DNA of 64,000 nt from Neodothiora populina. Its lineage: Eukaryota. This document shows, piece after piece, positions 18,592 through 41,412 of this stretch; position 1 is the first letter of the stretch; each line of letters opens with the position of its first letter. The notes under the pieces were generated by a model. It saw only the letters and a program-made list of their open reading frames with translations. It searched no databases and had not been told where the DNA came from. The DNA lies in contig NW_027191409.1 of the NCBI RefSeq assembly GCF_041146345.1, forward strand, positions 1,798,001-1,862,000. The letters are read 5' to 3'. The translations under genes and the position numbers were made by a program.

Positions 18592-18898
18592 AAGTCCAAT
18601 ACACAATCCCTTGGATATGACCAGGGTCGCCCTCTGTTCATGCGTATCGACCGAACGTGTGGGTGAATACGGGAACGTCATTAGATGATAGACGTCTTGG
18701 CTAAGGTACCTTAGGCTAGCTGCGAGCTAGCCTAAAGTGGCCAAGAGGCGGGATTATGCAAACAATATGATGCACAAAACACATTATGCTGCATCTCTCG
18801 TGCTCACTCGTATTCTGTCTAAGGTACCTTGTTTACCTCACACCGAAGGCAGGTTCGAGCATGTACAGCTGCGCCATAGCGGAGACACGGTCGCACCA

Positions 18899-20599
18899 AT
18901 GCCATCGTCTGAAAAGGTCTCTGCAGATCTGGACTACTACGATCTAGGCTCATTTACCAGAAGAGTCAGCACATCAAATGTTGACGCGCAAACATGGTTT
19001 GATCGCGGTCTCACTTGGAGCTATGCCTTCAATCATGAAGAGGCCAGCGAGTGCTTTCAAAATGCTATCGCCCATGATCCCAATTGCGCGCTGGCTTATT
19101 GGGGTTTGGCCTATTCGCTCGGCCCTAATTATAACAAGCCATGGGAGTTCTTTGACGAGTCTGATCTGGCTGCTACAGTAAGTCGTACTCACCAGGCGGT
19201 TGAGCTGGCAAAGGCAAATGCAATCCATGCTTCGCCTGTCGAGCGTGCACTAATCGACGCGTTACACTATCGCTATGCACAAGATCAAGCACCATCTGAC
19301 TGCTCCATATGGAGTCGTCAATATGCAAATGCGATGCAGACTGTATCCGAAAAGTTCCCGTCAGACTTGGATGTGGCAGCGCTATATGCTGATGCATTGA
19401 TGAACTTGACTCCTTGGCAATTATGGCATCTTTCTACAGGCGAACCCGCCTCGAATGCTCGCACTCTTGAAGTCAAAGCCATTCTCGATACGGCTTTGTC
19501 TCAAAAAGATGGTCTTACTCACCCGGGCCTCTTGCATCTCTACATCCACCTCATGGAGATGTCCCCTTACCCGGAGGCTGCTCTACCCATAGCGGATCAT
19601 CTGCGCAGTCTTGTACCAGATGCAGGACATCTCAATCACATGCCATCTCATCTTGACGTCTTATGCGGGGACTACACAAGAGCCATTGCCTCTAACTCGG
19701 ATGCTATCCGCGTCGATGAGAATTTTTTGGCCAGAGCAGGACCTCTGAAATTCTACACATTGTATCGCTCGCATGATTACCACTTTCTCATTTATGCAGC
19801 CATGTTTGCAGGCCAGTCTCGAATTGCGCTGGAGACTGTCGATCGCTTGGAATCTTCCATTCCAGAAGCTCTGCTTCGTGTTCAGTCTCCACCAATGGCC
19901 GACTGGCTGGAGGGCTTTCTCACTGCGCGTGTGCACGTCCTCATTCGATTCGGTCGCTGGCACGAAATAATGAACCTGACGCTCCCTTGCGATAACACTC
20001 TATACTGTGTCACGACGGCTACTATACACTATGCAAAGGGTATCGCCTCGGCCGCGACTGGGGATCTCGAAGAAGCGGACAAACAGTGTAAACTGTTCCA
20101 AGGAGCAATGCAACGTGTTGCACCGAGTCGTACGCTGTTCAATAACAAGTGCATAGATGTACTGGGCGTCGCTCGAGCCATGCTAAGTGGTGAACTCGAA
20201 TATCGTCGTGGAAGGTTCGAGCTAGCTTTTGACCACCTACGAAGCGCGATCACACTCGATGATGCCCTCCCATATGATGAGCCATGGGGGTGGATGCAGC
20301 CCACTCGACATGCATATGGTGCACTACTGCTGGAACAAGGTCACATCGAACAAGCTGCAGTTGTTTACAGCGCCGACCTGGGAATAGACGACACGTTGCC
20401 ACGTGCTCTTCGCCATCCGAACAATGTCTGGGCGCTACATGGTTACCATGAATGCCTCACGAAGCTTGGTCGCGTATCTGAAGCTCAATCGATCGTACCT
20501 AAGTTAGCCTTGGCCTTAGAGCTTGCCGATGTCCCTGTCAAAAGCTCTTGTTTCTGTAGAAGAGGTGACATACAGAATTTCGGCATGCAGCTCAGCTAG
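18899..20599 (+). CDS. TPR-repeat protein of unknown function (intronless, His-rich family)
   Basis: YYDLG, AQTWFDRGL..YAFNHEEA, AYWGLAY.LGPNYN, HPG..HLYIHLME, AGHLNHMPSH, YDEPWGWMQP.RH, HPNNVW, SSCFCR. Likely start at ATG 18899. Confidence 0.88.
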   Translation: MPSSEKVSADLDYYDLGSFTRRVSTSNVDAQTWFDRGLTWSYAFNHEEASECFQNAIAHDPNCALAYWGLAYSLGPNYNKPWEFFDESDLAATVSRTHQAVELAKANAIHASPVERALIDALHYRYAQDQAPSDCSIWSRQYANAMQTVSEKFPSDLDVAALYADALMNLTPWQLWHLSTGEPASNARTLEVKAILDTALSQKDGLTHPGLLHLYIHLMEMSPYPEAALPIADHLRSLVPDAGHLNHMPSHLDVLCGDYTRAIASNSDAIRVDENFLARAGPLKFYTLYRSHDYHFLIYAAMFAGQSRIALETVDRLESSIPEALLRVQSPPMADWLEGFLTARVHVLIRFGRWHEIMNLTLPCDNTLYCVTTATIHYAKGIASAATGDLEEADKQCKLFQGAMQRVAPSRTLFNNKCIDVLGVARAMLSGELEYRRGRFELAFDHLRSAITLDDALPYDEPWGWMQPTRHAYGALLLEQGHIEQAAVVYSADLGIDDTLPRALRHPNNVWALHGYHECLTKLGRVSEAQSIVPKLALALELADVPVKSSCFCRRGDIQNFGMQLS

Positions 20600-21394: not shown

Positions 21395-22546
21395 TCAAGC
21401 CAAGATGCCCGTCCTCGTCCTTTCCTGAGGCCATTTGCCGATCGTATATTGTGAATTGCACATGTTCTCCAACTCCCAGGTTTCTGTAGAAAGATTAATA
21501 AGAGTCGAAAGTGCGACATAGTCAGAGCACTGGGCAGAATAACTTACCTGCACCAAGAACTCCGCGCTCTTGCTCCAGATCTTCCCAGTCGCCGGCTGCG
21601 CCAGCTATAAAGCATGCAGCCATGAAATGGTCATCGGTTCCCTAGCGATGTTAGAGTTTGGTAGATCAGAGAGCAGCAGTCTTGACTAGAACATACGTGT
21701 GCGTGGCGATAGTCAGGATGCTTCATCAGTCTAGTGATCGATCTTCGTAGAGCAGGCCCCCTTTGTTGCGTGAAACAGTCTTCTATGCTTTGTCTGAATT
21801 CCAGCATTGGCTTCTCGGGTGCGCGGAGTTGGGCGAAGTTATCGCGATAGAGAACCATGGGCTCCCAACGATTCCTGTACAAATTGTGAACGGCACCGCC
21901 GGTACCTATCATGAGATAGCCCTCGTTACGCAGAGGTCGCAGAGTCGAGCCAATTTTCATGTGCACATGGGGATCGTAGTAAGCGTTCATGCTGACGATA
22001 GTCGTGGGAGGGCAGCCATTGGGAAACATTCGAATGAGGATGAGGAATGTGTCGTGGATCCAATCGAATTTGTCATTTAGTCCTACTGCCGTCAGCCATA
22101 CCAGTCAACTCGCTGGTTCTTCACTTAATCTTACTTGCATTGAACCCGGCGTCTTGAAGCATCTTGACAACCTTGCCAGAAGTGGGCAGGTCGGGGTTGA
22201 GCTGGTAATGCACATATTTTGACGGGTGAACATATCCCACGGGACTCTTCTCGGGCTTCGGGTTAGCAGAAACGTCGATAGCATCCCCTGATGCATCCCA
22301 GTGAGCGCCCTAGATATTGTTAATGTATAGCAGATCCAGAACAGAACATGGAAAATTACCATCATCACCACGCCTTTGATCCCGTTCGCCAGTGCTTCGT
22401 CGCCACATTGCTTCCAATACGCCGCACTGGAAGAGTCTTCGCCGAGCATCATGGTCGAGCCATGACTGAAGAAATGTACAGGAGTCGGTGCTACTTTGAT
22501 TGTGAGATCGTTATAACAGTCTTTGCAGCCTGCGGAACTCACCCAT
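21395..22546 (-). CDS. Extradiol ring-cleavage dioxygenase, class III LigB / DOPA 4,5-dioxygenase-like
   Basis: Spliced model MAPTPVHFFSHGS..., GAHW, DWIHDT, LRPLRNEGYLMIGTGGAVHNL, AHGTDDHF, ETWEL; stop 21397-21395. Confidence 0.88.
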
Positions 22547-22723: not shown

Positions 22724-22748
22724 TCGGGAAGTGTGCCCACCTTCCCGA
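22724..22748. promoter_or_regulatory. CGG-containing inverted repeat TCGGGAAG-N9-CTTCCCGA in the dioxygenase/TF divergent promoter
   Basis: Perfect 8-bp arms at 22724-22731 and 22741-22748. Confidence 0.45.
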
Positions 22749-22971: not shown

Positions 22972-25855
22972 ATGAGTGCTTACGATACAACATCGACTTT
23001 GGGGAAGCGCAGCCATGAACAGGCGGATCTCTCTACCCCTGCCACAGATAGGCTGTTCCAATGCAGCGAGTGTGGCAAAAGCTATTCTCGTGTTGACCAT
23101 CTAGCCAGGTATGTTTCTATTGGTTACAAGAATTGGCCCCTGCATTCTCACAAGTCGACAGGCATGTCCGGCTCCATACCAAGGTACAGACATATAAAAA
23201 TCTTCTCAGGAAATGTCTCTCGGTAGGGACCTCAAATCTGACACTGATCAGGAGAAACCGTATTCTTGCGAGACCTGTGGGAAAGGGTTTGCCAGGGCGT
23301 AAGTATCATAGAGCGGTCCCCTTCCCCCCTGTCTCCATTTGAAAGGGCTCATAGTCATTCGTAGAGATCTTCTGAAGAGGCACGTGCTCGGTCATGACAC
23401 TAGGGGTGACCATGAGCAAGCTCGAAAGAAACGAACGCCTGTTTCTACGCGTGTAGCCAAAGCATGTGAAGCATGCGCGGATCTGCATCTCCGGTGCGAC
23501 GAGCACAAACCGTGCTCGAGATGTGAGAAGAAATCACTGAAGTGCATCTATGGCGGATCTCCCGTCCCAGGAAATGTGAAGGCTACTACTAACGACGGGA
23601 TGAGTGTGGTCGAAACCCAAGATGGTCTACCTGACGCAGTTGTACAAGAGAATACTGCGCCCGCTCTGACCGAGATGAGTTCTCTCCCTCCGATTGCTAT
23701 CAATACATATCCTGAGCAGCCTTACGACGTGCAAGACATGCACACTTCTGTCGACTCTGGCGGTGATGGCAATTTCAATTACGCTGCGCATACACCCTAC
23801 CCCTTCATAGATGCAGGAGGCGCTGATAATCCATGCGAAGCGGACGTCAATTTAATGGCAAGCTATCTGCAAAGTATCATGGGTCGAGGAGATCCGGACA
23901 TGACAGTGGCTCCAGGACAACTATCGGGGACCTGGACACCGAGGAATGTCTTCGACTTTGGTCAAGACACAAATTTAGAACTCAGCGATGTGGACCTTGG
24001 CTTCCTGAATATCTACAACCTCCAGAATCCATTCGCAGACTTCGTGCCAAGTCCAGATGCAACGCAATCTGTGCAAGGCTCGGCGGCCAGCAATCCGCCT
24101 TCAGCTCTTGCTGGCGAATCACTGCAACGCCGATCAACCTGGAGGTTCAGGCCTGTAGTGCAGGATAGCTCCGCCAGTGAACAGCAGAACCTGTCTCTTC
24201 CAACAGGAGAAGCGAACAAGAAGGTTCTGGTCGAACGCAGGATGACCGCCGAGCCCTTGTCGTACCACATGAGGGATCGGATACTTGCAATACTGATCTC
24301 CTCATGCCGTGGGTCAAGTGTTCCTAGATTTGTCCTCTGTTTTCCCTCTCTTGAGCTTCTTGATAGCCTTCTTCAGTTCTATCTTGCATCGAAGGTTGCC
24401 ACTTTCAGTGGTCTTGTTCATCTCCCAACCTTAAGTCTACCAGATCTGCGTCCGGACTTGGTAGCGGCTATGATCGCTGCTGGAGCGACACTAACTCCAG
24501 ATGCTTCCTTGCAAAAAATTGGCTTCGCTATACAAGAGGCTCTGCGGGTCGCAGTACCCGAGCTTGTGGAAGCAAACAATACCTTGATCGCAGATCTACA
24601 ATGTCTGCAGTGTATGGTAATTTGTCTTGGAATAGGGTTGTGGAGTGGCAACTCACGCAAGATGGAACTATCCGAGAGCTTCTTGCAACCTTATCTGACA
24701 ATGATCAGGCGTCGCGGCTGGTTCCTTCGCAGTGCGTATCCTGACATCACGCCTTTGTCTTCAGACGAAGGATCTCGTCTTGAGGAAAAATGGTCTGCCT
24801 GGGTCAGTCAAGAGTCCAGGAAACGCCTTGTATTCTCTTTCTATCTCCACGCTGTGAGGCAGTCGATATCTCTTTTCACCAATCCATTGATATCTTACGC
24901 AGAAATGGGACTTCCATTGCCAGCAGTCTCGGACCTTTGGCTGGCACCTTCTGCTTCGCAATGGAAGGTGAAGCTCCTATCCACTTCCGATGCCACACCT
25001 TCTCTTGTGGATGTGCTTCATGATGTCGACATCCTCGCAGATTCAGGCACTCGATTCAGCACTGTGCTATCAAGCGAACTAATCCTCGGCTCGGCTTGGG
25101 GGCTGGTCTGGGAGTATAGGCAGATATGCTCTGTCATGAGAGGCAAACACACTCAGTGGAGCACTTCCAGCTTAGTTTTGTCCTCGAGACTTACAGAACT
25201 CAGTAAGCTTTTGGAATGCATCCGGATCAGTGCTCCTACAGATCCGAAAACCACACTGTTTGTGGAGCTGCTCCTCATGCACCTTTATGTTCCGCTCGAA
25301 GAAGTACACCTGTTCGCTGGCGCCGAAGGCTATGAAGAAGCACGGAGAGTATTCCCACAGCTAGAAGACTGGGCGAAAACTTCGGCATCCCGCGAGGCTG
25401 TGTTTCATGCCGCTCAGCTTGTCTCAGCAGCTCGCAATATGGGTCAGGGTTGTCTACGCGACTTTTGGGCCATCGCGGTTTATCAGGCCGCTCTCACGAT
25501 GTGGACATACGGCGTCATAACGAGCTCTGGAGACAGCGACCCGGATGGTAACGCCCGTAGCATCGCGACACCAACATCAGCACCGAAACGTGCGGATAGT
25601 ATCGCTGTGTTGGATTCAAATGGCAGCAGTGGTAGTCAGCGATTCATTGCAATGAATCGTGGTCAAGGGGCAATAACTGGATATTCAAATAACGAAAGGA
25701 AGGGCATGGTCCTGTTGTCCGATCCATCGGCGATCATGAAGGCACTGGTCGAGCTCCTTGAAGCCAATCACAAGATGCAGCACTTGTTACCGCCGCTGGT
25801 AACTAATCTGGCATCATTAATGAACGGGCTACAGGTAGCCGTAGCTGATCAATAA
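22972..25855 (+). CDS. Transcription factor with two C2H2 fingers, a Zn(II)2Cys6 cluster and a fungal TF middle homology region
   Basis: [49 protein letters not shown] (spliced, includes a 22-nt exon at 23162-23183), then CEACADLHLRCDEHKPCSRCEKKSLKC; W..QESRKRL, LPLP...LW.A. Confidence 0.92.
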
Positions 25856-26134: not shown

Positions 26135-28026
26135 CTACGCCTTGGGAGGCACGATGGGCAGAGTTACATAATTCGAAAACTTGTCTCCGAAATGGATGTG
26201 GTTCGTCCCCCGTAACTTGTCCGGCGATCTAGAAGGATGATTAGTCACAACATTTTCGTGTAGCTGATGATCTAGTATGACTCACCGATCGGTAGCATCA
26301 TGGTGTCCGAAGATGCCCGAGCCTTGAGTGTCACCACTCGACACCTCGAATACGATCTTGCCGCCTTTCTCAACAACGACATTCGTGGGCCAGATCTCAA
26401 TGTCTACAAGATAAATCTCGCCGGGCAACACGGGCAGAACATCAGTGCTGAGATATTCTCTCCAGGGAAGATAAGGCCTGTGCTTGTAATGCTCCGGGTT
26501 AGTCTTGCGCATGGATACACGCAGCCATCCCTTCACCAACGGAACGGGGTCTCCGGCAGTGCCTGTGTAGAAGACTTCTGTTCCGGCGGGCGAGATGTGG
26601 CGAAGTGTGACGAAAAGATCGATGTCTGTGGGCGTGGGTCCTGTTGTGTCCTGGGTCAAGGATACGTTGAGATGTGCAGTGACGTGTCCAGTGATCTCGG
26701 TTTCTTCTGTAAAGGCCGGAGTGGTGAACTGAATGAGTTCGGGCTTTTCCACAGTTCCAAGGGCGCGGTAGCCCAGTTTTGCTTTTCCGACAGGTGGTTC
26801 GGTGACCAGTTCATTTTTCGGGGTAAGGTAGTAGTTTTTGTACTGGGTGCGAGCGATCGGCCATTCACTCTCTGTGCGGCGCGGGTATTGCTTCTCGGCG
26901 TCGGCGTCGTTGAAGCCGACGTCGCCCTTTCGCAGTACCATATCTACCATAGGTAGCTTGCCCTTCTGAGACCAGCCAAGAGTGTCCTCGCCTTTGAGGA
27001 ACGCATCCAGAAAGCTCTTCTGGACCTCGACCTCTTCGTCGTAGTAGAATGGCAGGTCATGACGCCCAGTGATACACCTGAGGTATTTGAACTCGGATCC
27101 AGCGTGTGTGAAACCTTCGATGTTGCCTCGGAGATGAAGTAGAATGCCTCCCCAGTTGGCAACGGAGAGTAAAGGCACCTTAATGTCTCCCATGTCGTAC
27201 TCCTTCGAGGCATAGTATGCGTCATCTCTGAACCGATTCACGACGTTGTCCTGTGTCTGGTCCTGAAGGTTGGCTTTTCGCTCTTCCTCGGAGAGATCTC
27301 CTTCGATGGTATCAGGGCCCCAATTGCTCGCTGATCGGCCAGGACGGCCATACTGGTTTGTGATTACTTGGCGATTCCACCAGAACTTGATGAATTGGTT
27401 GGAAAGAATGCCGCCGTGACGACATCTGTCGCGGTAGTAGTCTGACATACCCTCCCAAGGGACCATGGCAGCCAAGCCTTTGGGGTTTCTCGCAGCCACT
27501 CGCCACTGAGAACCAGCATAGTAGCTGATACCAAGGAGTCCGACTTTCCCAGTCGACCAGGCTTGCTCGGCACACCACTCGACGACATCGAAGAAGGCTT
27601 CGGAAGTTCCACGGGACATGGTGTCGAGAACACCGGGTGACTGACCAAGGCCTCGTTCATCTGCACGCACAACTGCATAACCGTGCGAAGTCCAGAACTT
27701 TGGATCTGGGGTCTCCCACGCGGAATGCTCGCTCTTGTGCTTCGGGTTGACTTCCTCATAACTCTTTGGATGGAACAGCGAGTATGGGATATCCTTGCCG
27801 TAACTAAGAGTCGTCAGGACTATTGTAAATTATGCTCGTCTGTCTCTACTCACGGTCCATAGGTTACAAGCACAGGAACCTTGGTTGAATCCGATGTTTT
27901 CGGTCGATATACATTCACGCGGACAAGTCCTTCGCTTGATTTGAGTTGGACAGTAGCATTTTCCTCGTAGATATAAGGAAAACTGTCCTTGTCGACCTTG
28001 TGGAGGTCAAGCGTCTTGTTAGGCAT
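26135..28026 (-). CDS. CocE/NonD family (peptidase S15-like) alpha/beta hydrolase, no signal peptide
   Basis: NVYRP, PVLVTYGPYGKD, WETPDP, D.RG.G.SPG, nucleophile elbow GISYYA, GRHDLP, EWPIART and a C-terminal PepX-like domain; two introns. Confidence 0.92.
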
Positions 28027-28230
28027 GCTGGCTGTATGGGAGTACGATAGGTCTCGATTCTTTGGATCCAGTCAACAATCTTGCTCAGCGAGGATCCGTG
28101 GGGGTTTTGTTTAACATTCGGATCTATTTTACCCGGCTCTGACCACCTTTCCCACTTGCGGAGTTTGAGGTGATTGAGGTGATTATGCCTGGTCGGCCCA
28201 CCATGGTGGAGTGCGGAGTCGCGGGGAGGC

Positions 28231-28243
28231 CCTCCACATCCCG
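28231..28243 (+). promoter_or_regulatory. Cluster promoter motif CCTCCACATCCCG (copy 1, hydrolase/cupin promoter)
   Basis: Exact 13-mer, preceded by GCGGGG-N4. Confidence 0.75.
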
Positions 28244-28465
28244 AAGTCAACGACCCACATCGTTTTGGCCGTTGGCCGAGGACAACGCATGTGAATCATG
28301 ATGGCAGTACGTCTGGTCCTACTTCTAGCTACATCTCTCACGTCTACCAGTTGGGACTTGACTGTTTCTGTAAACACTTTCTGAGAGGCGACTTGTTGAA
28401 CCTGAACGCGAACCATTTCCAAACCCACCTCAACTACTCGTCATACCAAAATAGATCGCATAACC

Positions 28466-29064
28466 ATGCCTTCACCACTCCCAAACTTTCAGCGACTGAT
28501 CACTGGCCACAGCAAGGATGGAAAATCAATCCTTGTAGCAGATGAACAAGCGCCATGGGACGATAATGTCGAAGGAGGCAATGCCGCCTTCTCGTTGGCA
28601 TACACAACTTCGTCTACCCCAGTCGATATGAATGCCGACAATGATTTGAGCAAGTACCGAGATTATCTGGTTAAACCACCAGGACTTGTTGAGAAAGGTG
28701 GGTCAGTCTTGAGATTCGTGGTATGTAATGAATTATATCCAGCAATGATAAGATGAATTGCTGATCGTCGACAAAGGACATGGCACCTGGTATCATATCA
28801 CCCATGCACCGAACAGTATCCATCGACTATGGCATTGTTATACTCGGACGAGTCGAGCTTGTTCTTGATAGCGGGGAGACTAAAGTCATGGAACCCGGAG
28901 ATGTATGCGTCCAACGTGGAACGATGCATGCTTGGAGGAATGCGTCACAAACCGAATGGGCCAGGATGATGTATGTCCTACAGCCTTCATTGCCTGTTGA
29001 GATCGAGGGAAAGCCTTTGGAGGAGGAACTGAGTCACATGAAAGGAGTCAGAAAGTCGTCGTAG
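28466..29064 (+). CDS. Cupin-2 domain protein
   Basis: R.ITGH..DGKS, intron 28721-28776, SPMHRT.SIDYGIV, GD.CVQRGTMHAWRN.S..EWARM. Confidence 0.9.
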
Positions 29065-29247
29065 TTCCAATATACAGCAGTACACATATGTAAGCATTTT
29101 GAGTTGGAAAGCATTTTCATAAAACTTTTAACCACATCTGCACCGTAGCATTTCATTCATGTCAAGTTTAGAGATTGTCAGGTACAATTCGGAATAGAAA
29201 TTACTACAAGAGACCCAGTGCAACAAAGACTCACTCCATCCTCGCAA

Positions 29248-29683
29248 CTAGTACTCTCCTCCTTTCTTCCATTGAAAAAAAGTATCGTTGAATTTCCCTC
29301 CGGTAGCTCTCCACATCCTATTGGCGGCCTGAAATATGTTAGACTGCTGTAGCAGCGAGTTGCAGGACGGGAGATGTAAGCATAGAACTCACCGATACGA
29401 CTCGAATACCATTGAACATATTCCAAAGGAAAGCTCGCTCAATGTTGTTCTGATAGACGCTCCTGTATTGTACGTCCAGGTCGTAGTCTATAGGTCGGTG
29501 ATCAGGAACGCGGCGATAGCCACTCTCCCACGTCTCAGGGTTGTTTCCTGTGCCTGTCGGTGCTGCACGAGGATTGAGATCGTGTGTAGCGTCTTCCACT
29601 TCAGCGCTGTGATGAATGTCGTAGTCTGCTAGTGTACGCGCGAACGCGTAGGTGGTCTGATTTTCGGTGACTGTTACAGACAT
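29248..29683 (-). CDS. Small protein of unknown function (123 aa)
   Basis: Exons 29683-29393 and 29328-29248; intron GTGAGT..CTAAC..CAG; divergent from the ALDH-like gene. Confidence 0.75.
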
Positions 29684-29914
29684 GTTGAGGTTAATGGGTC
29701 GTGGAAATGGGTTTGATGGCAATACAAACAATCGAAGTTGTCGTTTGGAATACAAGAGTACGATGTGCTATAGGAGGATCAACCCCGAGACCACTTGAAC
29801 AATACCAGTGATTACTATTCGCACCTCCCCACGCTGTGAACGTAAGCTGAGCATGTTTGAGCGGAACCCCACTTTCTCCTCCACCACTAGGAAAGTGTAT
29901 TTTGGGGGATGGCA

Positions 29915-29927
29915 CGGGATGTGGAGG
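29915..29927 (-). promoter_or_regulatory. Cluster promoter motif CCTCCACATCCCG (copy 2)
   Basis: CGGGATGTGGAGG on the + strand between the small-protein and ALDH-like genes. Confidence 0.75.
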
Positions 29928-30081
29928 ATCTCCAAATCTCCCCAAATCGTCTCCTCGGACCTTGGTATCAATTGTGATATGGTGAGTGCCCTAGTGATAA
30001 ACTTGTGTATTATTCTCGTTCGTGGCCGCTGATTGCAAACACCCGGGTTTCCTGCCAGCGACACATACGACGACGACATTA

Positions 30082-31774
30082 ATGGCTGGACAACAGATTG
30101 AGAATATCCGAGCGGCAGCTGTCGATGGCCGAACACGCAATGTGATCTATCGTCGAAGTCAGCTTGGGAAACTCCAAGCAGCACTCTCGCAAGAAGCCGA
30201 GACCATGATATCTGCCATAGCACAAGATACAGGATGCACCATGCTAGAGAGTCGAGTCGAGTATTACTTGACCATGCTTCAAGTCAAAGACCGTTACCTT
30301 GAGCTTGATCCTGCTGGAGAACTCGTGATGGAATACTCCATCGCCGAAGGTAGAGATGCCTCAGAATCACGGGAGGGTGTTGGGATCGTCCTCATCTCCG
30401 CAGTTGTGGACCACAGTCCTTTTTTCTCGGTGGTCGCGCCGCTTAGCGCAGCGATTGCAGCTGGAAATTGTGTCATACTACAGGTGGGATGTCCATTTGG
30501 CAAGAATTGAATTTCACCGACTGACAGCCAATCAGGTTGAGAACACTGTTCGCAGCCTGCCGAATGCTTTGAGAAAAGCATTGCGAGTGCTGGACAATGA
30601 CACTTTCGGCATCATTCAGCAGCCTTTGGCGGATGCAGACAAATCTGCAATAAGTCTCGAAGTGGTCCAAAGCAGTCAAGTCACATCGAATTCGAGAACG
30701 GATCAAATTGTATCTGGCCAGAATCGAAGAACAGTTGCCGTTGTCGACAGGACTGCGGATATGGAGAAGGCAGCAGAAGCTCTGCTATTTGCTCGCTTCG
30801 GCTACTGCGGACAATCTCCCTATGCGCCGGATATCGTACTGGTGAACGAGTTTATCAAAGAAGACTTCTTGCAGACACTAGTCAAGAAGTATTCTCACTT
30901 GGACCAAGATCCCATGCCGGGCTACCAAAAGTCGGAAAAATCTGGAAGCAAAGACACGAAGCTTGAAAAGTCCATTGCCGATTTGCAACGGAACGGCAAC
31001 GTCAAGCTTGTCAACCAAGCTGCCAGAGGAGCTATCCTAGACATCAAAAACAGGTCAGCCGAGTGTTCCCTATCGTAAAGTATCAGTGCTAACCATCCGA
31101 GCAGAGGTTCTCAAACATTCTTGAAGAAGATTAGAGCACCCTGCATGGTCGTTCATGGTTTCAAAAGTCTCGATGACGCGATCGATGTCTTGAACAGGTC
31201 AGTTTTTCTCATCAGTCAGACATGGTGATAGCAATGACTAAACAAGCGATAGCGACGGCCAAGAGAATCTGGCTGCCTACCACTGGGGATCGGCAGGACA
31301 ATGCAGATATCTGAGTCAATTCATTTCGGCTCGAGTCACGTTCGTGAACCACATACCCGCAGACCTTCTAGGTAAGTACGAGACACACCTCGAGTAACTG
31401 CTCAGCAACTGACTATGCATTCCGAAGTTGGTCCTGCATTCCCGGATAATGCCATGATAGATGCATCTGTCAGATTTCCAACGTCCCTGTTCTCAAAGCC
31501 AACGCCAGCTTTTGTCACGCAATCGACCAGGGCTACAGTAGTCGCCGATGCTCTAATGGCACCATCCACATCGGAGAGAAGATTGCTGCTGGAAAGATTG
31601 AGGGATGAGGCGATGAAAGAGCTGCCCGACTACAAGAGGAAGCAAAAGTCGCGTGCGGCATTTGGATTCTTCGAACAAGCCATGCTTATCAATCTGGGCC
31701 TTGTGCTTCTGTCGACAGTCACAGTGGTAAGCGGGGGTGTCTATGGGTTCAAACATGGATGGCTGCGACGATGA
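30082..31774 (+). CDS. ALDH3/fatty-aldehyde-dehydrogenase-like protein lacking catalytic motifs, with C-terminal membrane anchor
   Basis: R..QL.KL, GVGIVLI, PLSAAIAAGNCVILQ, GQSPYAPDIVLV, SLDDAID; five exons with an open frame; hydrophobic C-terminus. Confidence 0.85.
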
Positions 31775-32010
31775 AGAAGAAGCTTGATCTGCAGCCTAGT
31801 GTAATCAATAAATTACAAAATACCATGTTCTATGTTCCATGTTCTATATTCGCTCAGCATTCGTTACACTATATTTTTCACCTAAATTTGAAATTATCAA
31901 CCCAGTTTGATGATAAGAAAGTAATGGTAATCATATCGAGATGTTCTCTATAGAAAGACCTGCTGTAAAGAAGCACTGGTTACAATTTCGTATGAAGAAT
32001 ACTATGTAAT

Positions 32011-34347
32011 CTACTCGATCCTCCTTGCGCTACTGACATCTCCGACCATTGGCACTTCCTTCACAGACGCTTCCAAAATCTCGTAAATTGGAACTTTGCT
32101 CCACTCATCCGCGATATGATGCAGTGTCGGCAAGGTCTCCCAGCTGCCTGGGGTACATCTGATGCTTGCAGACGTCGATAGCAGATCCTCAGATGTCTTA
32201 TTTTGCGGTTTATCATTTTGTGCAGTATCGTCCGATCCGGCAGGCTTGGTGTTGGGTTTGTCGAATTCTGCAAACACGGCATACTCGGCATCAGCGACAC
32301 CTGGCTGACCCACCGCAGGTACATATCGGTACATAAGAGTGCCCTTGTCAGTGTTGGCTTTCGGAGCTTTCGAATTTGCACTTCCATCATCTTGGTCCGC
32401 GTTACGTGTTCGAGGTTGTAGATCATTCAGTTCCAGCTCGACGAATGGACTTCCTCGCCAGCTTAATTTGACGGACCTCGATGTGTCGGAAGTCGAGATA
32501 TCGATCGTGCACCAGAGCTTCGGAGCAGCAAGCTCTTCTCTTCCAGTGATAATCGGATCTGCCAGATCCTCGAACAAGATTGGTAAGAACGTGCCTGTGA
32601 GTACCTCGCCATCCTTCTTCTTGTATTGAACGCCATGTATATACAGACCGCAATGGTTATAGCCGCCGTCTCCAAGCCATACCATATTGCGTAGAGTACA
32701 GCAGGCGATGCTTGCTTCCGCAAAAGTGCCTGGTGAAATGAATGAGAATTGATCGGTTGGCAAAAGGTTCTGCAAGAATGTTCGCGAGGTCTTGAAACGT
32801 ATCGACGTGACTGTCTGATTTTGAGCAGCATATGAGTGCTGGCTCAAGTCCCTGTTCAACGGCTGACGGGGACCTGGGGATGGACCAAATGAGATGGGTT
32901 GGCGATAACGAAGCGCAGTGCGTGTATTCAGATACTTCTTCAGTGCATGAGTTGAATGATCCCACTCGTCATGTCCGAAGTTGTAGTTGGTGAATGTCAT
33001 AGCTGAGAAAAAGATTAGCACTTGTCGGTGAAAGTACAACATAAAATCAACTTACGATCATATGTCAGTCCCCGCTTGGCTAACTCCGCCGGACTCATAC
33101 CGCTACGTCGGGTAGCTTCCTGGATGTGGTCGGCCCTTTCTTTACGACAACTCTCATAGAGTCTCAATCGTTCAGAAATGGCCTCCTTGGGGGTGCCCAG
33201 AGGAAGTAATGCAGCGAGTGACACGGCGTCCTCCATTGCTTGACCTCCACCCTGCGCTTGATGAGGCAGGAATGGATGGGCAGCATCACCCAACAAAGCC
33301 ATGCGCCCAGTGACCCATGTGTCCAGGACATCCATGTCCAAGAGCGTCCATACTTTCAGCGATTCTTCAGGAGCCTTCTCCAACAAGGCCCGGACCTGAG
33401 GTGCAAAACAAGATCCGATCTCGAGCATTCGTGCCTTGTTGCCTGCTTGGTTCCAGCCTTCCTCAGGACTATTTGATCGTGATTCATGGCTCGGATGTAT
33501 CAGGAGGAAGTTGATCAACGTGTTGTTGACACACGGGTATACTACTACGCGCCGATCATCGGCAAGGATCATGCATAGTAACCCTTCAGTTTCCACAAAT
33601 TCCTTACACTGAGGATCCTTCATGATTTCCTCCTTTGGCACAAGAAATCTATACGCACTGTGGCCGGAGTCTCGCGGCCTGAATTTCTTACTCTCGGGAA
33701 GGTATTTACGACAGATAGACTGCCATATGAGTCAGAATGATGGTTAGTGATGGCTTGGGACGGAGGACTTACATGTACACCATCTGCTCCGAGGACCAAG
33801 TCTCCGCGAACCGTCTCGCCATCTGCAAGCGAGACCTCGGCCTTGGAGGGGTTTACAGACTCAACTCGACTGGCCAGTCGAAGTACTGCAGGCTTGCCTT
33901 TACCTCCTTTGCTCACGACCTCTTCGCGAAGCATAGTGTGCAGATGTGCTCTGTGTACCAGATGCCATGGCTGTCAAGGTGAGTCAGTCACGATCGCCGA
34001 TCTTTGGTACATATACGTACATGTTGCCATATAGTGTTCATCGCCTTCAATGGTAATTGGAACGCCTTCTTTCCAGAACGACCATCGTACTGTGCGAGAC
34101 CGCACATCTCATTGCCTCCTATCGTTTCGAGATAGAGACCCATTCTTCGCAAGAGCCCATTAGCATTTGGGGCCATATGGATAGCTGCTCCGGTCTCATT
34201 GCTGAATCGAGATGTCTCTAGAAGAGTGACATCATGTCCCTGTTGTCGCAATGCAAGCGCAGCAGTCAGTCCGCCGATACCAGCGCCGACAATTACAATG
34301 GACAGAGGGGCTTCTGCCTCTGCTGTGATCCCGTTTGTGTGTGGCAT
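32011..34347 (-). CDS. Salicylate-hydroxylase-like FAD monooxygenase fused to an acetoacetate-decarboxylase-like (ADC) domain
   Basis: IVGAGIGGL, GADGVHS, LLGDAAHPFLPHQAQGGGQAMED. The last intron joins in frame to ...GREELAAPKLW... and LPTLHHI. Confidence 0.9.
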
Positions 34348-34533
34348 TTTGTTGTGCGAGTGCGAAATCTAGTCGATTGAGGGAAACAAAGGCGAAATGA
34401 TTGGTTTTGTTCTTACGCTCGCTTTCGTCAACTGGATCTGTGGAATGTGGAGTAAGTGATGTAAACCGTTCTTAATGGCGCGGAACTCTAACACAGCGAC
34501 AACTGGTGGGGGTGAGTGATTATGCGGGGGATT

Positions 34534-34546
34534 CCTCCACATCCCG
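34534..34546 (+). promoter_or_regulatory. Cluster promoter motif CCTCCACATCCCG (copy 3, monooxygenase/FAH promoter)
   Basis: Exact 13-mer, again preceded by GCGGGG-N4. Confidence 0.75.
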
Positions 34547-34734
34547 GCTGTGGCATTGCCGCTGTAGCCGACATATGGTAGGCATTTTGGTCTTCATCAG
34601 ACCTCGGGAACAAAGCGAACTTGAAATAGCATACTGTAGTAGTATGCTTTAGTCAATGCTCATAAAGACAGGTTTTTAAGTTCTTCTGCATAAAATCGAT
34701 ATCCTGAATATCAGTCATTTAGATATCGCCCAAG

Positions 34735-36116
34735 ATGACGGCAAGTAACCAGGATTGGAGTGCCCATTTCGGAATACAGAACATACCCTTCGGTGTTGCA
34801 AGCTCGAGCAAACACAACACTCCACAGACTGTATCTCGCTATGGTAATAGCATTATATTTCTCGCCGAGTTGGGAGAGTCGTTCTTGGCGTCTGTTCAAC
34901 TCCCACAAGATGTTTTCCTCGAGTCCACATTGAACAAGTTCGCTGCGCTGGGAGGCTCGGTGCAGCAAACAGTTCGTGGCGCACTCCAAGCAATGATTAA
35001 GGCAGATTCCATCCCACAACACAGTATCGAGGATGTAAGTATGGTTCAAATGCACCTTCCGGTATCTGTCGGCGATTTCACCGACTTCTCTTGCTCGGAG
35101 TACCACAACCTGAATGCAAGTCAGGCCGTCACGGGCAGACGAGGCTTACCACCAACGTGGGGCTTCATACCTCCCGGTGAGTCATTATCAAAACACATCG
35201 AATAGCACTTTTTTTTGATGCAATGAAGGCTACGCAGGAAGGTGCTCGAGCATTGCTGTATCTGGTAGTCCCGTCAGGCGACCGAAAGGTCAGTTTTGGG
35301 CAGATGCCGCCTCAGCGATGAAGGGAGAGAACCGCTCGATCCTTTACGGCCCGTGCAAGAAGATGGATTACGAAATGGAACTAGGAGTGATTGTAGGAAG
35401 ACCGGTTCCTTATGGCGAGACGATGACAGCTCAGGAAGCGGAAAACCACATTTTTGGATATGTAATCCTCAATGATTGGAGTGGTGAGTCCTCCGTCATC
35501 ACAGATGAACTGGTGATCGGAGCTAATTGAACCTCTAGCCCGGGATATCCAAACATTCGAGATGATTCCGCTCGGACCATTGAACTCCAAGAATTCAGGT
35601 ACAACCATGTCACCATGGGTGATCAGTCCTGACGCGGTGGCACCATTTCGAGGTGTCAGTAAAACGCTGTTCCGTAATGTGGCACCCAATCTCGTGCAAT
35701 CACATGACAAAGTCCTTGCTGTCGATATGAAAATCACCGTGACGCGTCCAATGCCAGAGAAAGAAGGTGAGGTGGTAAGAGACAACACGGCTGAGGTTAT
35801 GAGTCGATGCAACAGTTCTGTGATGGCATGGTCTTTCGAACAACTGATTGCCTATCAATCAAGTGCCGGATGTGGTCTACGATCAGGCGATCTGCTTGGC
35901 ATAGGAACAGTGAGCGAGGAGGAGGATGGAACACGAGGTTGCCTACTCGAGGATAACATTCCATCGTTAGGAAGAGCGAGAGGCTTCGTTCAAGATGGCG
36001 AGACCGTGGAACTCAGTGGCTATTGCGGAGAAGGGGTTGGATTTGGAGACTGCAGAGCTCAATTGTTACCAGCATCTGGCGATAATGTCTGGACCCCCAT
36101 AAATCCGAGCAAATAG
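34735..36116 (+). CDS. Fumarylacetoacetate hydrolase family protein
   Basis: FGIQNIPFG, MHLPV.VGDFTDF, MDYEMELG, LNDWSARDIQ, GPLNSK, GDLLGIGTVS, GVGFGDC; two introns. Confidence 0.92.
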
Positions 36117-36629
36117 ATACAGACACCAGCATTTGGATCGTTCAGCTTGACTCACTCCCAGTCTCTAGACGCAAGACAACACAGCAGGCATCATGGCATC
36201 GAGATTTCTCAGACGAAGTTCTGACTATACTACAATAATTCCACGGTGAGGTGCTCGGACAACGACGTGCATTAGAGAGCTTACGCTGCTACATATACCC
36301 TACTTTTACAGCACAACAAAACCCACTCCTGCACCAGTATGGTACATCTTTGCTTGCGTAAGTATGCCTTTGATGCCATGTCCTGGTTCGAAATATTACC
36401 CAGGTGCATTGCAGACCCATGTACCTGCTATTATTCCATATTCAGCATGCGACTTCGACGCAACTTGGCCCCAATCGATGACCACCTTGGTTGTACACAT
36501 GTCGCTCCCTGTCGCCCCACAACCTTTGGGTAAAGGTATATCTAGAGTCGAATTGTGCCGTGCGACCCCGCTATATTACTCCATATGAGATTAAGCTCCA
36601 ACGACATACTGTATAGTGTACTTGCCTCT

Positions 36630-36642
36630 CGGGTTGTGGGGG
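36630..36642 (-). promoter_or_regulatory. Near-match of the cluster motif (CGGGTTGTGGGGG, 11/13) upstream of the MFS gene
   Basis: About 200 nt upstream of ATG 36838; keeps CGG-N3-GTGGRG. Confidence 0.6.
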
Positions 36643-36837: not shown

Positions 36838-38696
36838 ATGGGTGGCTACAGAACAGCGTTTGCACTGTCGAAGACAGAGGTGCGAGATGCCAGACCTTTG
36901 GGCACTGCTGTACTGATTGGTATCAACATCACGTCTCTGGCCATGATCAACCAGCTAATGTGTGAATAGACCATGAACTTGTGCGGACCACTACTGGGAA
37001 CCATGAATATGTCGAGGACCATCTGCAACTGGTACCGTAAGTGACAGATGATATCGTATCTTTTCTTGTGACGATGGCTAATCCTTCTCTAGCGAACCCT
37101 CGCAAGATCCAGCAGATCCACTGAACTTTCCCATGTGGAGGAAACTTGCAATTCTCTCCTGCATGAGTCTGTATGCGTTCATAACAAACGTGTCCAGTGC
37201 CATCATCAGTAGTGCGTTGCCCGAGCTGGTCACGGCTTTTGCGACCTTTTCGAGGACGGGCCCTCCCACCGGGCTGGTGCCCTTCTCGTCCTTGACCCAT
37301 CTTATCGCCGTCAACATTCTGATGCTGGGAGCTTCCAACATCTGGTGGGTCCCGCTCGGCAACACCTTTGGCCGTCGTCCGATCATCCTTGTGAGCATCC
37401 TCCTCTTGACAGGTTGCTCTGTATGGTGCGGGGCCGCACAGTCTTATCCCAGCCTTCTAGCGGCTAGGGTATTCCAAGGTGAGGAAAGCCATGTATCTAT
37501 GCTTGTCTGACCACAGCTGACACATTACTCAGGCATTGGTGGCGGTGCAGCCGACACGCTCGCTGCTGATGTTGTTGGCCAGATCTTCTTCGTACATCAA
37601 CGTGGCCGAGCTATGGCCATATATACCATGATGCTCGTATCCGGCTCCCTCATTGGAGGGTTGATCGGAGGATATGTCACAGCCAGCTTGAGCTGGCGCT
37701 GGACATGCTACATCCCTGCAATAATGAGTGGTTGCCTTTTCGTCTTGACCTTCTTCCTCGTCCCGGAGACTCTCTTCGATAGGACCAGTGCAATCGCAAT
37801 TGCACATGAGCCCATCGCCGAGGAGGACGACGTCAATGAAAAGTCCAATACAAGCCGTATTGAGTCTGCTCCCCACCATGCTTTCCCACCATACACATTT
37901 GCCAGATCTCTCAAGCTCGGGACATATCGCCCTGGCCTTCTCAAGCGTCTCGTTACTCCCTACACGACTCTGTTGTTCCCAGGAACATGGATGGTCATGC
38001 TGCAGTATGGTGGTCTTGTCGGTCTTACAGTCACCGCAAGTACCATTGCTCCTGTCCTGCTAGCTCAGCCACCATATCTATGGGGTGCCAACGTGGGTCT
38101 CATCAACGCTGGAGGCCTTGTTGGAAGCATACTTGGAGCTGTCTATACATATCTAGCTGCTGACTGGTGGGTCAAACGTGTGGCAAAGAGAGACTCACAT
38201 GGGTATGGTGAGCCAGAAGCTCGTGTCCCACTCATGTTCCCAGCTCTTGTGATAGCCTTTGCCGGAGCGCTTGCCTTCGGATTCTCAGCCCAAGCTCTTA
38301 CACCAAAGGCATGGATTGGACTGGAGTTTGGATCTGGCATGATCGCATTTGGACTGATGCAAGTTCCATCTATCGGGTTCAACTACCTTATCGAGTGCTA
38401 TGGTGGATGGGCGTCGGACTGCTGTAAGTCTATTCTATGTCAGCCAACTACCTGCAGAGTACTTGTACTGACTATAAACAGTCTTGATGGTTGTGACTTT
38501 CCGTGCTGTTATTGGTTTCGCGTGGACATTCTTCGTCGGTACCTGGACAGCCTCGGCTGGGTTTGCCCTTCCGTTCGGCATCTTTGCCCTTCTGATGGGC
38601 GTTTTTGCCTTGACCGCTGTACCAGTCTGGCTTTGTGGCAAACGTTTCCGAATCGCAGGCGAGAACCTCATACAGAAAGAATTCGCCGTGAGATGA
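36838..38696 (+). CDS. MFS transporter (DHA1/Hol1-like)
   Basis: PLGT, P.PSQDPADPLNFP.WRK, FGRRP, ARVFQG, FFVHQRGRAM, VPET, EPEARVP; four introns. Confidence 0.9.
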
Positions 38697-39836
38697 GCGA
38701 GATGGACTGCGTAGCCGTTTGCAATGGTAGGCTCAAGCACGTATTCGCACAATTTGTAAACACATTCTTATGTTAATGCAAACCGACAATCTTTGTGGTG
38801 TTCAGACCTTTCTCTATTCGCTCTGAGATGACAACGCTGTGATCTTGATTCTATACCTAAGAATATCGCACCCCCAGTAATGAGCCTGATTTGTCAGCCT
38901 GTCCGTGTCATTATCTCCTTCTATTATTCGATACACGAATGTTGGGTTCAGAAAAGGTCGCTTTCCCTAGAGGCATATCCAAGGAATGCGACTAGCCCAT
39001 GATGTTTTGTGAATTTTACAATCACTGGTTCGTGGTTGAAAAACAGCTGCCATGACCACTGGGGGCACCTGGCCTGTCGCTCCAAGGATCCATCTAGCAC
39101 GGCCGAGCCCCACACATTTTATATGCATATCAGCATCCACAATGTATATTGCACCTCTGAATTCAGGGACCTCCGGACGGAGCGGCATGCTACGCTGATC
39201 GTCCTCAATGGCGCATTCTATATGCACAAGCAGATTACGATTTTCGTGCGACGATAAGCATGTTAGCCTGTCATCTTGCACGAGAGGCTCATACATGTCT
39301 GCGTGAATCCTGCGGAGGTCTTCAACCACTCACCAGTTCTACGCAGATTAGGACAAAATTGTCCTCAAGTAGCCCGTTAATCGCTATCGACACTGGATCG
39401 CTCCTGGAGCCCTTCAGAATCATCGCATGAGCACGAAGATAAAATGCCGTGCGAGGTCATCTTTAGGCAATGTGCCATTAGCATAAGACTATTGGCACTT
39501 TGATGAAGCTTGCATTCAACTGCCGGAATGAGTCTAACAACTAAGGAGATTACATGCGTACGGATCGCTTCCGCATCAGAAGCAAGAAGCATATATTTTC
39601 ATGACACCACTACTGTCGTGGATCCGCTGGATTTAAGTGTTCGAGCGCCAAAAATTGCAGCTTGACATTCTATCAGATCAGATCCTCAACCAAATACGGT
39701 GTAGTCAGCAGGGCGTTGGGCAGCGATCCTCGCAAACAGCGTCCTCAAAATTATCATAGATAGCCTTCATCCTTCAGATTTCCACTTCGAAAAGTGCCGT
39801 ATGCGTCATAGACTACGATTCGACGATTGACCTACC

Positions 39837-41169
39837 ATGGCAGCAAATTCGCCGGATGTCATAATCGTCGGTGCCGGGATCATAGGGCTCATACTGGGTC
39901 AAGCTCTCAAAAAGGTGCATATGATAGAATGTTAGATGGCATCAAAATCTTTGACGCGCAGAATAGGCAGACATACCGTTCGTGATTCTCGAGAGAGACG
40001 AGAACGCCTCAGCTCGAATTCAAGGCTGGGCTCTGACATTGCACTGGGGTCTGGAGTACCTGAAAGAATTGTTGCCGGTCGAAAATTTAGATGCTGTGAA
40101 AGAGTGCCAGGTCGACCCCAACTTCGCTGCCAATGACACAGGCAAATTCCTTTTTCTGAACCTCGAGGATGGTACGACCAAATTTGAGATTCCAGTCCGA
40201 GAAAGGTGGAGGGTGAATCGAGACAAATTGAGAAGAGCTCTATGACGCGGGCTTGAGAAGAAGGTATTGTGGTCAAAGCATGTACAAAGCGTTTGCTTTT
40301 CCGAGGAAGACGCATCTCCTGTCGAGGTCGCTTGCGCCGATGGTACTATTTGGCACAGCAGATTCATCGTCGGCGTTGATGGCAGTAGCTCAAAGATTCG
40401 TAGACTTCTCTTACCGGACCTGCATGCTTTGACACAATTACCTGTCCGATTGACAGGAGTATCTGTCAAATTGACGCCTGAGCAAGCCGAACCTTTACGC
40501 TCCATAGACCCGTTGCTCTTTCAAGGACTTCACCCCTCAACCAGGACGTATCTTTGGTTCTTGATTATGGACGCCCCACCTGTAAGCAGTACAGAAAGTA
40601 CAGATGATCTCAATTATCTTGTCCAAATCAACATGAGCTGGCCGTATCTCTCACCTGCAGACGAGGTTCGCCATACTGATGCCGAAAGGCTAGACAATAT
40701 GCGGCAACGAGCCAAATGTCTGGAATCAAGGTTCAAGCGAGCCGTTAACGACATTCCGACAGGGACTTCAGTGTCTGAAGTGAAGCTCATGCATTGGAAC
40801 CAGGTAAAGTGGGACAACCATAGCCGAAGAATAACACTCGCGGGCGATGCAGCCCATCCGATGACAATGTGTCGGTCTCCCCCCTTCATCCTATCCCTCG
40901 ATTTTGCCAGCACTAACAGTATCATATCAAGATCGAGGCGAGGCGGCCAATCATGGGATCCGTGACGTTTATTCCTTAATGATGTCACTTCGTGAGTGGC
41001 ACGAAATGGCACAGCTTCGTCGATCCTGGAGCATTATGAAGAGGAATCGAGGCAACGTACGCTGGATGCAGCGGAATTAAGTAGGCAAGCTTGTCTCGAT
41101 GCTCACGACTGGGAAGCTTTGACCGAAGACAGTGCCATACGTGTACGAGGAGTCCAGAACGACCTCTAG
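39837..41169 (+). pseudogene. FAD-dependent monooxygenase pseudogene
   Basis: IVGAGIIGL, VGVDGSSS.IR, TLAGDAAHPMTMYRGEAANHG, SRQACLDAH. In-frame TGA at 40243-40245 and a frameshift near 41005. Confidence 0.85.
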
Positions 41170-41412
41170 AGGTCGCTTGCGTGTAACCGAGTGGTATTGT
41201 TGCCGCAGGAATGGCTCTCTACGAGATTTGAGAATGTACAAGGATCTCAAAGGGCCAATCAGATCACATGCAAGATGCATATGCTGCTATTTGCATAGTA
41301 AATCTATGTACCCATAGCAGTCCCGAGACATTTGCACGTTCATCATGTCGAATATGCGCTGGCCGTTGCTTGTTGCGTCAATTTGGTTAAAGATGGATCT
41401 CTACTGCTAATT

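Follow-up and report, generated by a model that had tools for sequence, protein, structure and literature searches.

A conserved two-part promoter element in a fungal aromatic-catabolism gene cluster and its probable reading by the cluster's own dual-domain regulator

What reads a 13-bp sequence that recurs, letter for letter, in three divergent promoters of a single fungal gene cluster? The question is raised by a 64-kb stretch of the Neodothiora populina genome (contig NW_027191409.1, positions 1,798,001 to 1,862,000; the whole stretch is here called the window, and coordinates count from its first base), which holds an aromatic-catabolism cluster of nine genes at about 21.4 to 38.7 kb. There is very little doubt that the repeat represents a real, conserved cis-element of the cluster. 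From the match between this element and the regulator encoded beside it, a protein with both C2H2 fingers and a Zn2Cys6 zinc cluster, we infer that the cluster regulator very probably binds it and, with a probability of roughly 0.65, that both DNA-binding domains of one regulator chain take part in reading it.

An earlier note, made from the letters of the window alone, had reported three exact copies of the 13-mer and a fourth with 11 of 13 positions matching. A scan of the window recovered all four, with no further match at two or fewer mismatches:

28231..28243, + strand: site 1, box CTCCAC followed by ATC, CCG and then A, between the divergent CocE hydrolase and cupin genes; score 22.9, rank 1
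29915..29927, - strand: site 2, exact copy between the divergent small gene and aldehyde dehydrogenase (ALDH)-like gene; score 21.4, rank 2
34534..34546, + strand: site 3, exact copy between the divergent flavin adenine dinucleotide (FAD) monooxygenase and fumarylacetoacetase genes; score 20.2, rank 3
36630..36642, - strand: site 4, two-mismatch copy, box CCCCAC followed by AAC, CCG and then A, upstream of the MFS transporter gene; score 15.9, rank 4

The scores derive from a matrix of 32 sites from related loci, built with the window left out; the four copies are its four best matches in the 64 kb, and the next best scores 12.9. The three exact sites lie near the midpoints of their divergent promoters, 161 to 238 bp from the start codons (centres at 211 and 229 bp for site 1, 238 and 161 bp for site 2, and 193 and 196 bp for site 3). 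Site 4, likewise at about 160-240 bp from a start codon, has a box variant that falls inside the consensus given below and has lost the T of the spacer. The earlier argument that such recurrence is implausible by chance holds for the exact repeat, which is beyond chance: the longest word common to three of the five cluster promoters is 13 nucleotides, against a maximum of 10 in 150 simulated promoter sets. It does not extend to the loose copy count, which taken alone is within chance, four copies at two or fewer mismatches being reached in 10 of 100 shuffled sequences. The extension GCGGGG-N4, which the same note had seen at copies 1 and 3, is present there but was rejected as part of the element, none of the 32 orthologous sites carrying it; a 10-mer common to promoters 1 and 3 was also rejected, with 0 matches in orthologous promoters.

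Conservation was assessed in related loci. Relatives of the CocE gene that are 75-90% identical occur across filamentous ascomycetes (best 120 of 4711 matches), and a metagenome scan confirmed 197 relatives, of which the best 80 were used, giving 65 loci after near-identical ones were merged. At least one partner gene was present in 50 of the 65, and the promoter set comprised 146 segments (80,053 bp) from 63 loci. In this set YYCCAC-N3-CCG occurs 34 times, compared with 3.3 in 30 shuffles, and other spacers give 3 to 14. Counted from the CYCCAC box, CCG stands at +3 in 32 of the 250 boxes in promoters, whereas 11 other offsets average 7.4 (maximum 12), and the controls are flat (2/125 boxes in distant DNA, 7/337 in coding DNA, and 0/22 in gaps between convergent genes). 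The CYCCAC boxes are themselves three times denser in promoters, where CTCCAC is the most enriched hexamer. The spacer of this first layout takes the form N-T-Y, with T in 30 of the 32 sites, and the base after CCG is A in 22 of them; on the opposite strand the layout reads TCGG-RAN-GTGGRG. The motif is therefore present in orthologous promoters, and its conserved positions are the two parts that had been proposed from the window, a CGG and a G-rich box, with a looser three-base spacer between them. The exact 13-mer, which recurs in 4 of the 65 loci, did not survive as the functional unit; judging from the conserved positions, the functional consensus is CYCCAC-N-T-Y-CCG(A).

Independence cannot be assumed among related loci, 10 groups of which have alignable promoters, and this favors a reading in which the signal reflects chance or the passive inheritance of promoter DNA. 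The enrichment nevertheless survives when one locus is kept for each of 44 lineages, defined as groups of loci whose promoters do not align (20 of 171 boxes, p ~1e-7, holding in three random draws), and when the clades with most of the signal, the window clade and a Pleosporales-like clade, are removed (11 of 136 boxes, p 0.002). These p-values are simple binomial values against the other offsets, in which deeper relatedness is ignored, and the clade names used here come from a quick CocE tree. The first layout was also found in the promoters of different gene pairs, which are not homologous to one another, while all of the controls were flat. Chance or passive inheritance is already largely refuted and retains only a minimal probability.

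A second arrangement, not visible in the window, was spotted post hoc but also ranks first (p ~1e-14) when every trinucleotide is scanned at 36 offsets (2304 pairs), a scan whose two best matches were both CGG half-sites. It places CGG directly before the box, usually as TTCGG-CYCCAC, and accounts for 32 of the 250 boxes, against a mean of 4.9, and for 20 of 171 with one locus per lineage. The two layouts share the T before CGG. Among the 44 lineages, 16 have the first layout, 16 have the second, 7 have both, and 25 have either; no second-layout site was found in the window.

The protein encoded next to the LigB gene offers a counterpart to both parts of the element. PF00172 and PF04082 were matched above cut-off, and two adjacent N-terminal C2H2 fingers are followed by one Zn2Cys6 cluster and then the middle-homology domain. 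A database protein of 898 aa (P0149) is identical to the regulator's last exon and agrees with the spliced gene model, and homologues carry the label "C6 transcription factor RegA" in UniRef. Of 120 homologues listed, 68 have two readable fingers, and in 68 of 68 with two intact fingers the residues at -1, 2, 3 and 6 are R-D/E-H-R in finger 1 and R-D-L-R in finger 2; the fingers of EGR1 share the R at -1 and the D at 2. Histidine at position 3 with arginine at 6 reads GRG in the finger code, leucine at 3 with arginine at 6 suits GTG, and C2H2 fingers bind DNA antiparallel. The contacts of the regulator thus predict GTG-GRG, which is the box in the correct order, and with antiparallel binding the CGG would fall on the side of finger 2 from which the chain continues. 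Of the homologues with intact fingers, 67 of 68 retain the zinc cluster, as do 21 of 22 loci with a readable N terminus, the contig ending first in the remaining one. The linker between fingers and zinc cluster is 19-27 residues long in 66 of 67 homologues and is of low confidence in the structure model.

These observations are consistent with a model in which the element would serve as the upstream activating element of the conserved cluster and would be read by the cluster's own C2H2 and Zn2Cys6 regulator. Finger 1 would read GRG and finger 2 GTG on the G-rich strand, the linker would span the three looser bases, and the zinc cluster of the same chain would read the single TCGG, the finger pair replacing the second half-site that is supplied in a Gal4-type dimer. 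One site per divergent promoter would activate both flanking genes, probably through an aromatic inducer acting on the middle-homology domain, as the analogy of other fungal pathway regulators suggests.

A dimer of the regulator might instead sit on an inverted repeat, CGG-N9-CCG, that encloses the box and of which the two layouts would be the halves. In the two layouts CGG and CCG do flank the box as an inverted pair, two sites carry both, and zinc-cluster proteins usually bind two CGG triplets as dimers (PMC9000951; this and the other publications cited were available in part, and what is drawn from them extends to that part). However, both halves occur in 2 of 250 boxes, compared with 4.1 expected if they were independent, and the four window sites all lack a second CGG. 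In 67 of 67 homologues the sequence after the zinc cluster shows no heptad pattern, and the structure model has no helix after the cluster until residue 230 (residues 125-229 being of low confidence), so that a Gal4-type coiled coil is not apparent; dimerization could still proceed through the middle domain. Such a dimer is improbable.

A reading closer to the favored one is that the regulator binds the box by its fingers only, leaving the CGG to be read by another zinc-cluster protein or by the basic linker. It accommodates the 188 of 250 boxes that lack a CGG at the preferred offsets, as well as the two layouts and the clade-specific spacing described below, and finger-only relatives of the same architecture, such as HxnR, do control clusters (PMC5746545). 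It does not readily accommodate the retention of the zinc cluster in all but one of the intact-finger homologues and one of the readable loci, the lack of any second zinc-cluster gene seen in the window cluster, or the presence of the same T before CGG in both layouts. We consider fingers-only binding unlikely, though the least unlikely of the alternatives.

Genome-wide counts bear on whether a global factor could be responsible. The 24-Mb genome contains four exact 13-mers, three in the cluster and one on contig C4, so the earlier statement that no copy lies outside the cluster holds within the window and gains one exact genomic copy beyond it. The degenerate first-layout consensus gives 51 matches genome-wide against 63 for a reversed control, and the motif is accordingly not common in the genome; the second layout, at 50 against 91, is not enriched either. 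The copy on C4 (L001:1500-1512) falls within an open frame of 180 codons, roughly 1 kb upstream of what we take to be a caleosin-like gene, and is probably due to chance. Close pairs of sites elsewhere (C3 ~1.51-1.53 Mb, C8 ~1.352 Mb and C13 ~1.707-1.711 Mb) were rejected as candidates: several fall within open frames, and neither a further cluster nor a further regulator was seen beside them. Separately, a second C2H2 and Zn2Cys6 regulator lies on C8 (L093-L097, G000:C8 608.9-628.1 kb) between a 2098-codon polyketide synthase (PKS)-like frame and a short-chain reductase, a synteny from which the locus is probably a Cmr1-type melanin locus. As a locus from one genome it is too little for motif derivation.

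The box could thus be the site of a global C2H2 factor, whether CreA/Mig1, an Adr1-like protein or this Cmr1-like protein, standing beside the half-site of another factor. Both forms of GTGGRG (GTGGAG and GTGGGG) fit the consensus SYGGRG, GCGGGG is enriched twofold, SYGGRG sites are present in yeast aromatic-cluster promoters (PMC8929692), and the second dual regulator has similar fingers. Enrichment is nonetheless confined to three of the eight SYGGRG hexamers and mainly to the GTG ones (GTGGAG 3.2-fold, GTGGGG 2.5-fold and GCGGGG 2.0-fold, the other five 0.7- to 1.25-fold), neither layout is enriched across the genome, and the intergenic DNA of the Cmr1-like locus lacks any exact site in either layout. 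A reading by CreA alone fits poorly, and a global factor of any of these kinds is a rather remote prospect, somewhat behind fingers-only binding.

Several observations count against reading by both domains of one chain. A CGG stands at either preferred offset in only 62 of the 250 promoter boxes, and with about a quarter of boxes so equipped it may only add affinity; the existence of a second layout and variable spacing is also unlike a rigid one-chain complex. Neither strict layout is found in 26 of 63 loci, many of which are short or belong to the longer-spacing clade. Where Gal4 has Lys18, the aligned residue of the window protein is His, so that reading of CGG by the zinc cluster is assumed. 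The regulator gene is lacking from the fetched DNA of 6 of 21 long loci, the LigB/regulator promoter of the window has no strong site, the box also fits the CreA/Mig1 consensus SYGGRG, and at least one further dual regulator in the genome has similar contact residues in its fingers.

The layouts are unevenly distributed among clades. The window clade has the first layout in 7 of 18 boxes and the second in 1 (small numbers), the Pleosporales-like clade has 12 of 51 and 0, and two other groups have mainly the second layout (11 of 44 and 9 of 32 boxes). A ten-locus clade (L009, L014, L015, L018, L021, L023, L026, L028, L030 and L075) has neither and instead carries CCG 5-6 bases off the box in 9 of 26 boxes, again small numbers; the regulator of L029, a near-copy of L028, has its fingers intact and a zinc cluster of the Lys type. 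The box followed by two bases and CGG, seen in promoters of L024, L027, L050 and L005, occurs 13 times overall compared with 2.7 in shuffles, with six of the occurrences in one clade, and is a possible but borderline third layout. At the Gal4 Lys18 position, among loci with a readable domain, the 11 with His have 18 first-layout and 7 second-layout sites, and the 10 with Lys have 5 and 13 (Fisher p 0.006), an association that is confounded by ancestry and may serve as a lead only. Linker length (19-31 residues among the loci) has no relation to layout by eye. It is conceivable, as a tentative extension of two-domain reading, that the finger pair is a fixed anchor from which the tethered zinc cluster swings to a CGG on either side, permitting opposite layouts in one genome, and that lineages have shifted among layouts and spacers (3 bases, flipped adjacent, 5-6 bases) together with the His/Lys change in the recognition loop. 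If true, this would provide a first binding code for the fungal C2H2 and Zn2Cys6 class and would exemplify evolutionary change in the geometry of a site bound by one protein.

The genes that the element would control, and one weak candidate for a fifth site, are as follows:

21395..22546, - strand: LigB/4,5-DOPA-extradiol-dioxygenase-like (LigB/DODA) gene, divergent from the regulator; adjoins CocE in 15 of 21 long related loci
22724..22748, strand not assigned: weak fifth-site candidate in the LigB/regulator divergent promoter, a perfect 8-nt inverted repeat with arms at 22724-22731 and 22741-22748
22972..25855, + strand: cluster regulator, 898 aa, four exons; two C2H2 fingers, a 23-residue linker, a Zn2Cys6 cluster and the fungal middle-homology domain
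26282..28026, - strand: CocE/NonD-family hydrolase, by family match
28466..29063, + strand: cupin-like gene of two exons, its fold named from a sequence motif; partner in 31 of 65 loci
29248..29683, - strand: small conserved gene; partner in 23 of 65 loci, mostly head-to-head with the ALDH-like gene
30082..31774, + strand: ALDH-like gene with a hydrophobic C terminus, by family match
32011..34347, - strand: salicylate-hydroxylase-like FAD monooxygenase fused to an acetoacetate-decarboxylase-like domain, by family match
34736..36116, + strand: fumarylacetoacetase-like gene, by family match
36838..38697, + strand: MFS transporter (start codon approximate), by family match

The four window sites serve seven genes, in agreement with the regulon that the earlier note had drawn. 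The cluster itself has nine genes, its LigB gene having been missed. Among 18 LigB/regulator promoters of relatives, 4 have the first layout and 6 the second, which suggests a nine-gene regulon with self-regulation. The arms of the inverted repeat in the corresponding window promoter resemble the CGG half of the element and flank a degenerate box, with a matrix score of only 6.6. Among the 21 long loci (at least 12 kb), the regulator is present in 15, LigB in 15 and all nine genes in 3, and gene order or content differs in all 21.

From the gene families, the cluster likely specifies import, ester or amide hydrolysis, ring hydroxylation, extradiol cleavage and C-C hydrolysis. The cupin-like gene had no family match at E 0.01, and the small protein had no match in family or Atlas searches. 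The ALDH-like protein lacks a cysteine in the segment where we presume the catalytic one of the family to lie, in 25 of 25 aligned locus rows including the window, and may be a non-catalytic or repurposed member. On the left, a single-exon tetratricopeptide repeat gene (18731-20599) adjoins the cluster, was not found in the related loci and marks the border. Just outside on the other side, a second FAD monooxygenase-like gene (39838-41170) contains an in-frame stop near 40245, is possibly broken, and was not among the genes found to accompany CocE in related loci.

The conserved two-part site and its natural layout variants supply exact probes for the question of whether one chain uses both domains on one site. 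The element also delimits the regulon of a widespread nine-gene cluster and would offer a compact inducible promoter part once the inducer is found.

Comparison with known systems places the element between established classes. The sites of CreA/Mig1 and of the Adr1 class of finger proteins resemble its box, a GYGGRG-type hexamer read by two fingers based on R-x-D/E, but the present element selects GTG as its first triplet, is linked to a CGG and is concentrated in a single cluster. As in Gal4-family sites, a CGG triplet keeps a fixed distance from another element; the differences are one CGG per site, a finger box as the second element and no coiled coil after the zinc cluster.

The signature genes of described fungal aromatic clusters (gentisate, 3-hydroxyanthranilate, nicotinate and tetrahydroxybenzene) were not matched, the ring-cleavage gene here being LigB/DODA-like, and the published gene lists of such clusters differ from this one (PMC7842363, PMC10832562). 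The ARD cluster class (Gluck-Thaler and Slot, bioRxiv 10.1101/184242) is similar in comprising conserved fungal clusters around a ring-opening dioxygenase, and this cluster may already be among the ARD models without a function or motif. No published function for the cluster or motif for this regulator type was found in the literature, the search covering article text, mostly open-access, rather than motif databases, DAP-seq tables or preprint supplements; an earlier motif may exist, and novelty is provisional. The available part of PMC10512309 makes no mention of the locus numbers of the Fusarium orthologue, and the available parts of PMC5415576 and PMC8232033 give no DNA motif for Cmr1-type or other dual regulators.

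The nicotinate cluster regulator HxnR likewise combines two fingers and PF04082 over a catabolic cluster, whereas the part of its description available includes no zinc cluster and no binding motif, and the genes are different (PMC5746545). Otf1 and Gtf1 of Candida parapsilosis, with motifs GGRN10WCC and GGAN7TCC, are also pathway-specific regulators of an aromatic cluster with a motif before each gene, but are single-domain zinc-cluster proteins on near-symmetric sites (PMC8929692). Copies 1 and 3 resemble a Gtf1-like GG-N7-TCC only through their unconserved GCGGGG extension. Regulators with both C2H2 and Zn2Cys6 domains were found in 140 fungal genomes (73%) of one survey, and the role of the two domains is described as not investigated beyond Cmr1p, in which melanin production was abolished when the zinc cluster was lost and reduced when the fingers were lost (PMC5415576). 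The regulator described here has the arrangement of Cmr1/Pig1, two N-terminal fingers and then one zinc cluster (PMC5415576), and differs in sitting with catabolic enzymes rather than with a melanin PKS and reductase, a separate dual regulator in the same genome holding the PKS-reductase locus.

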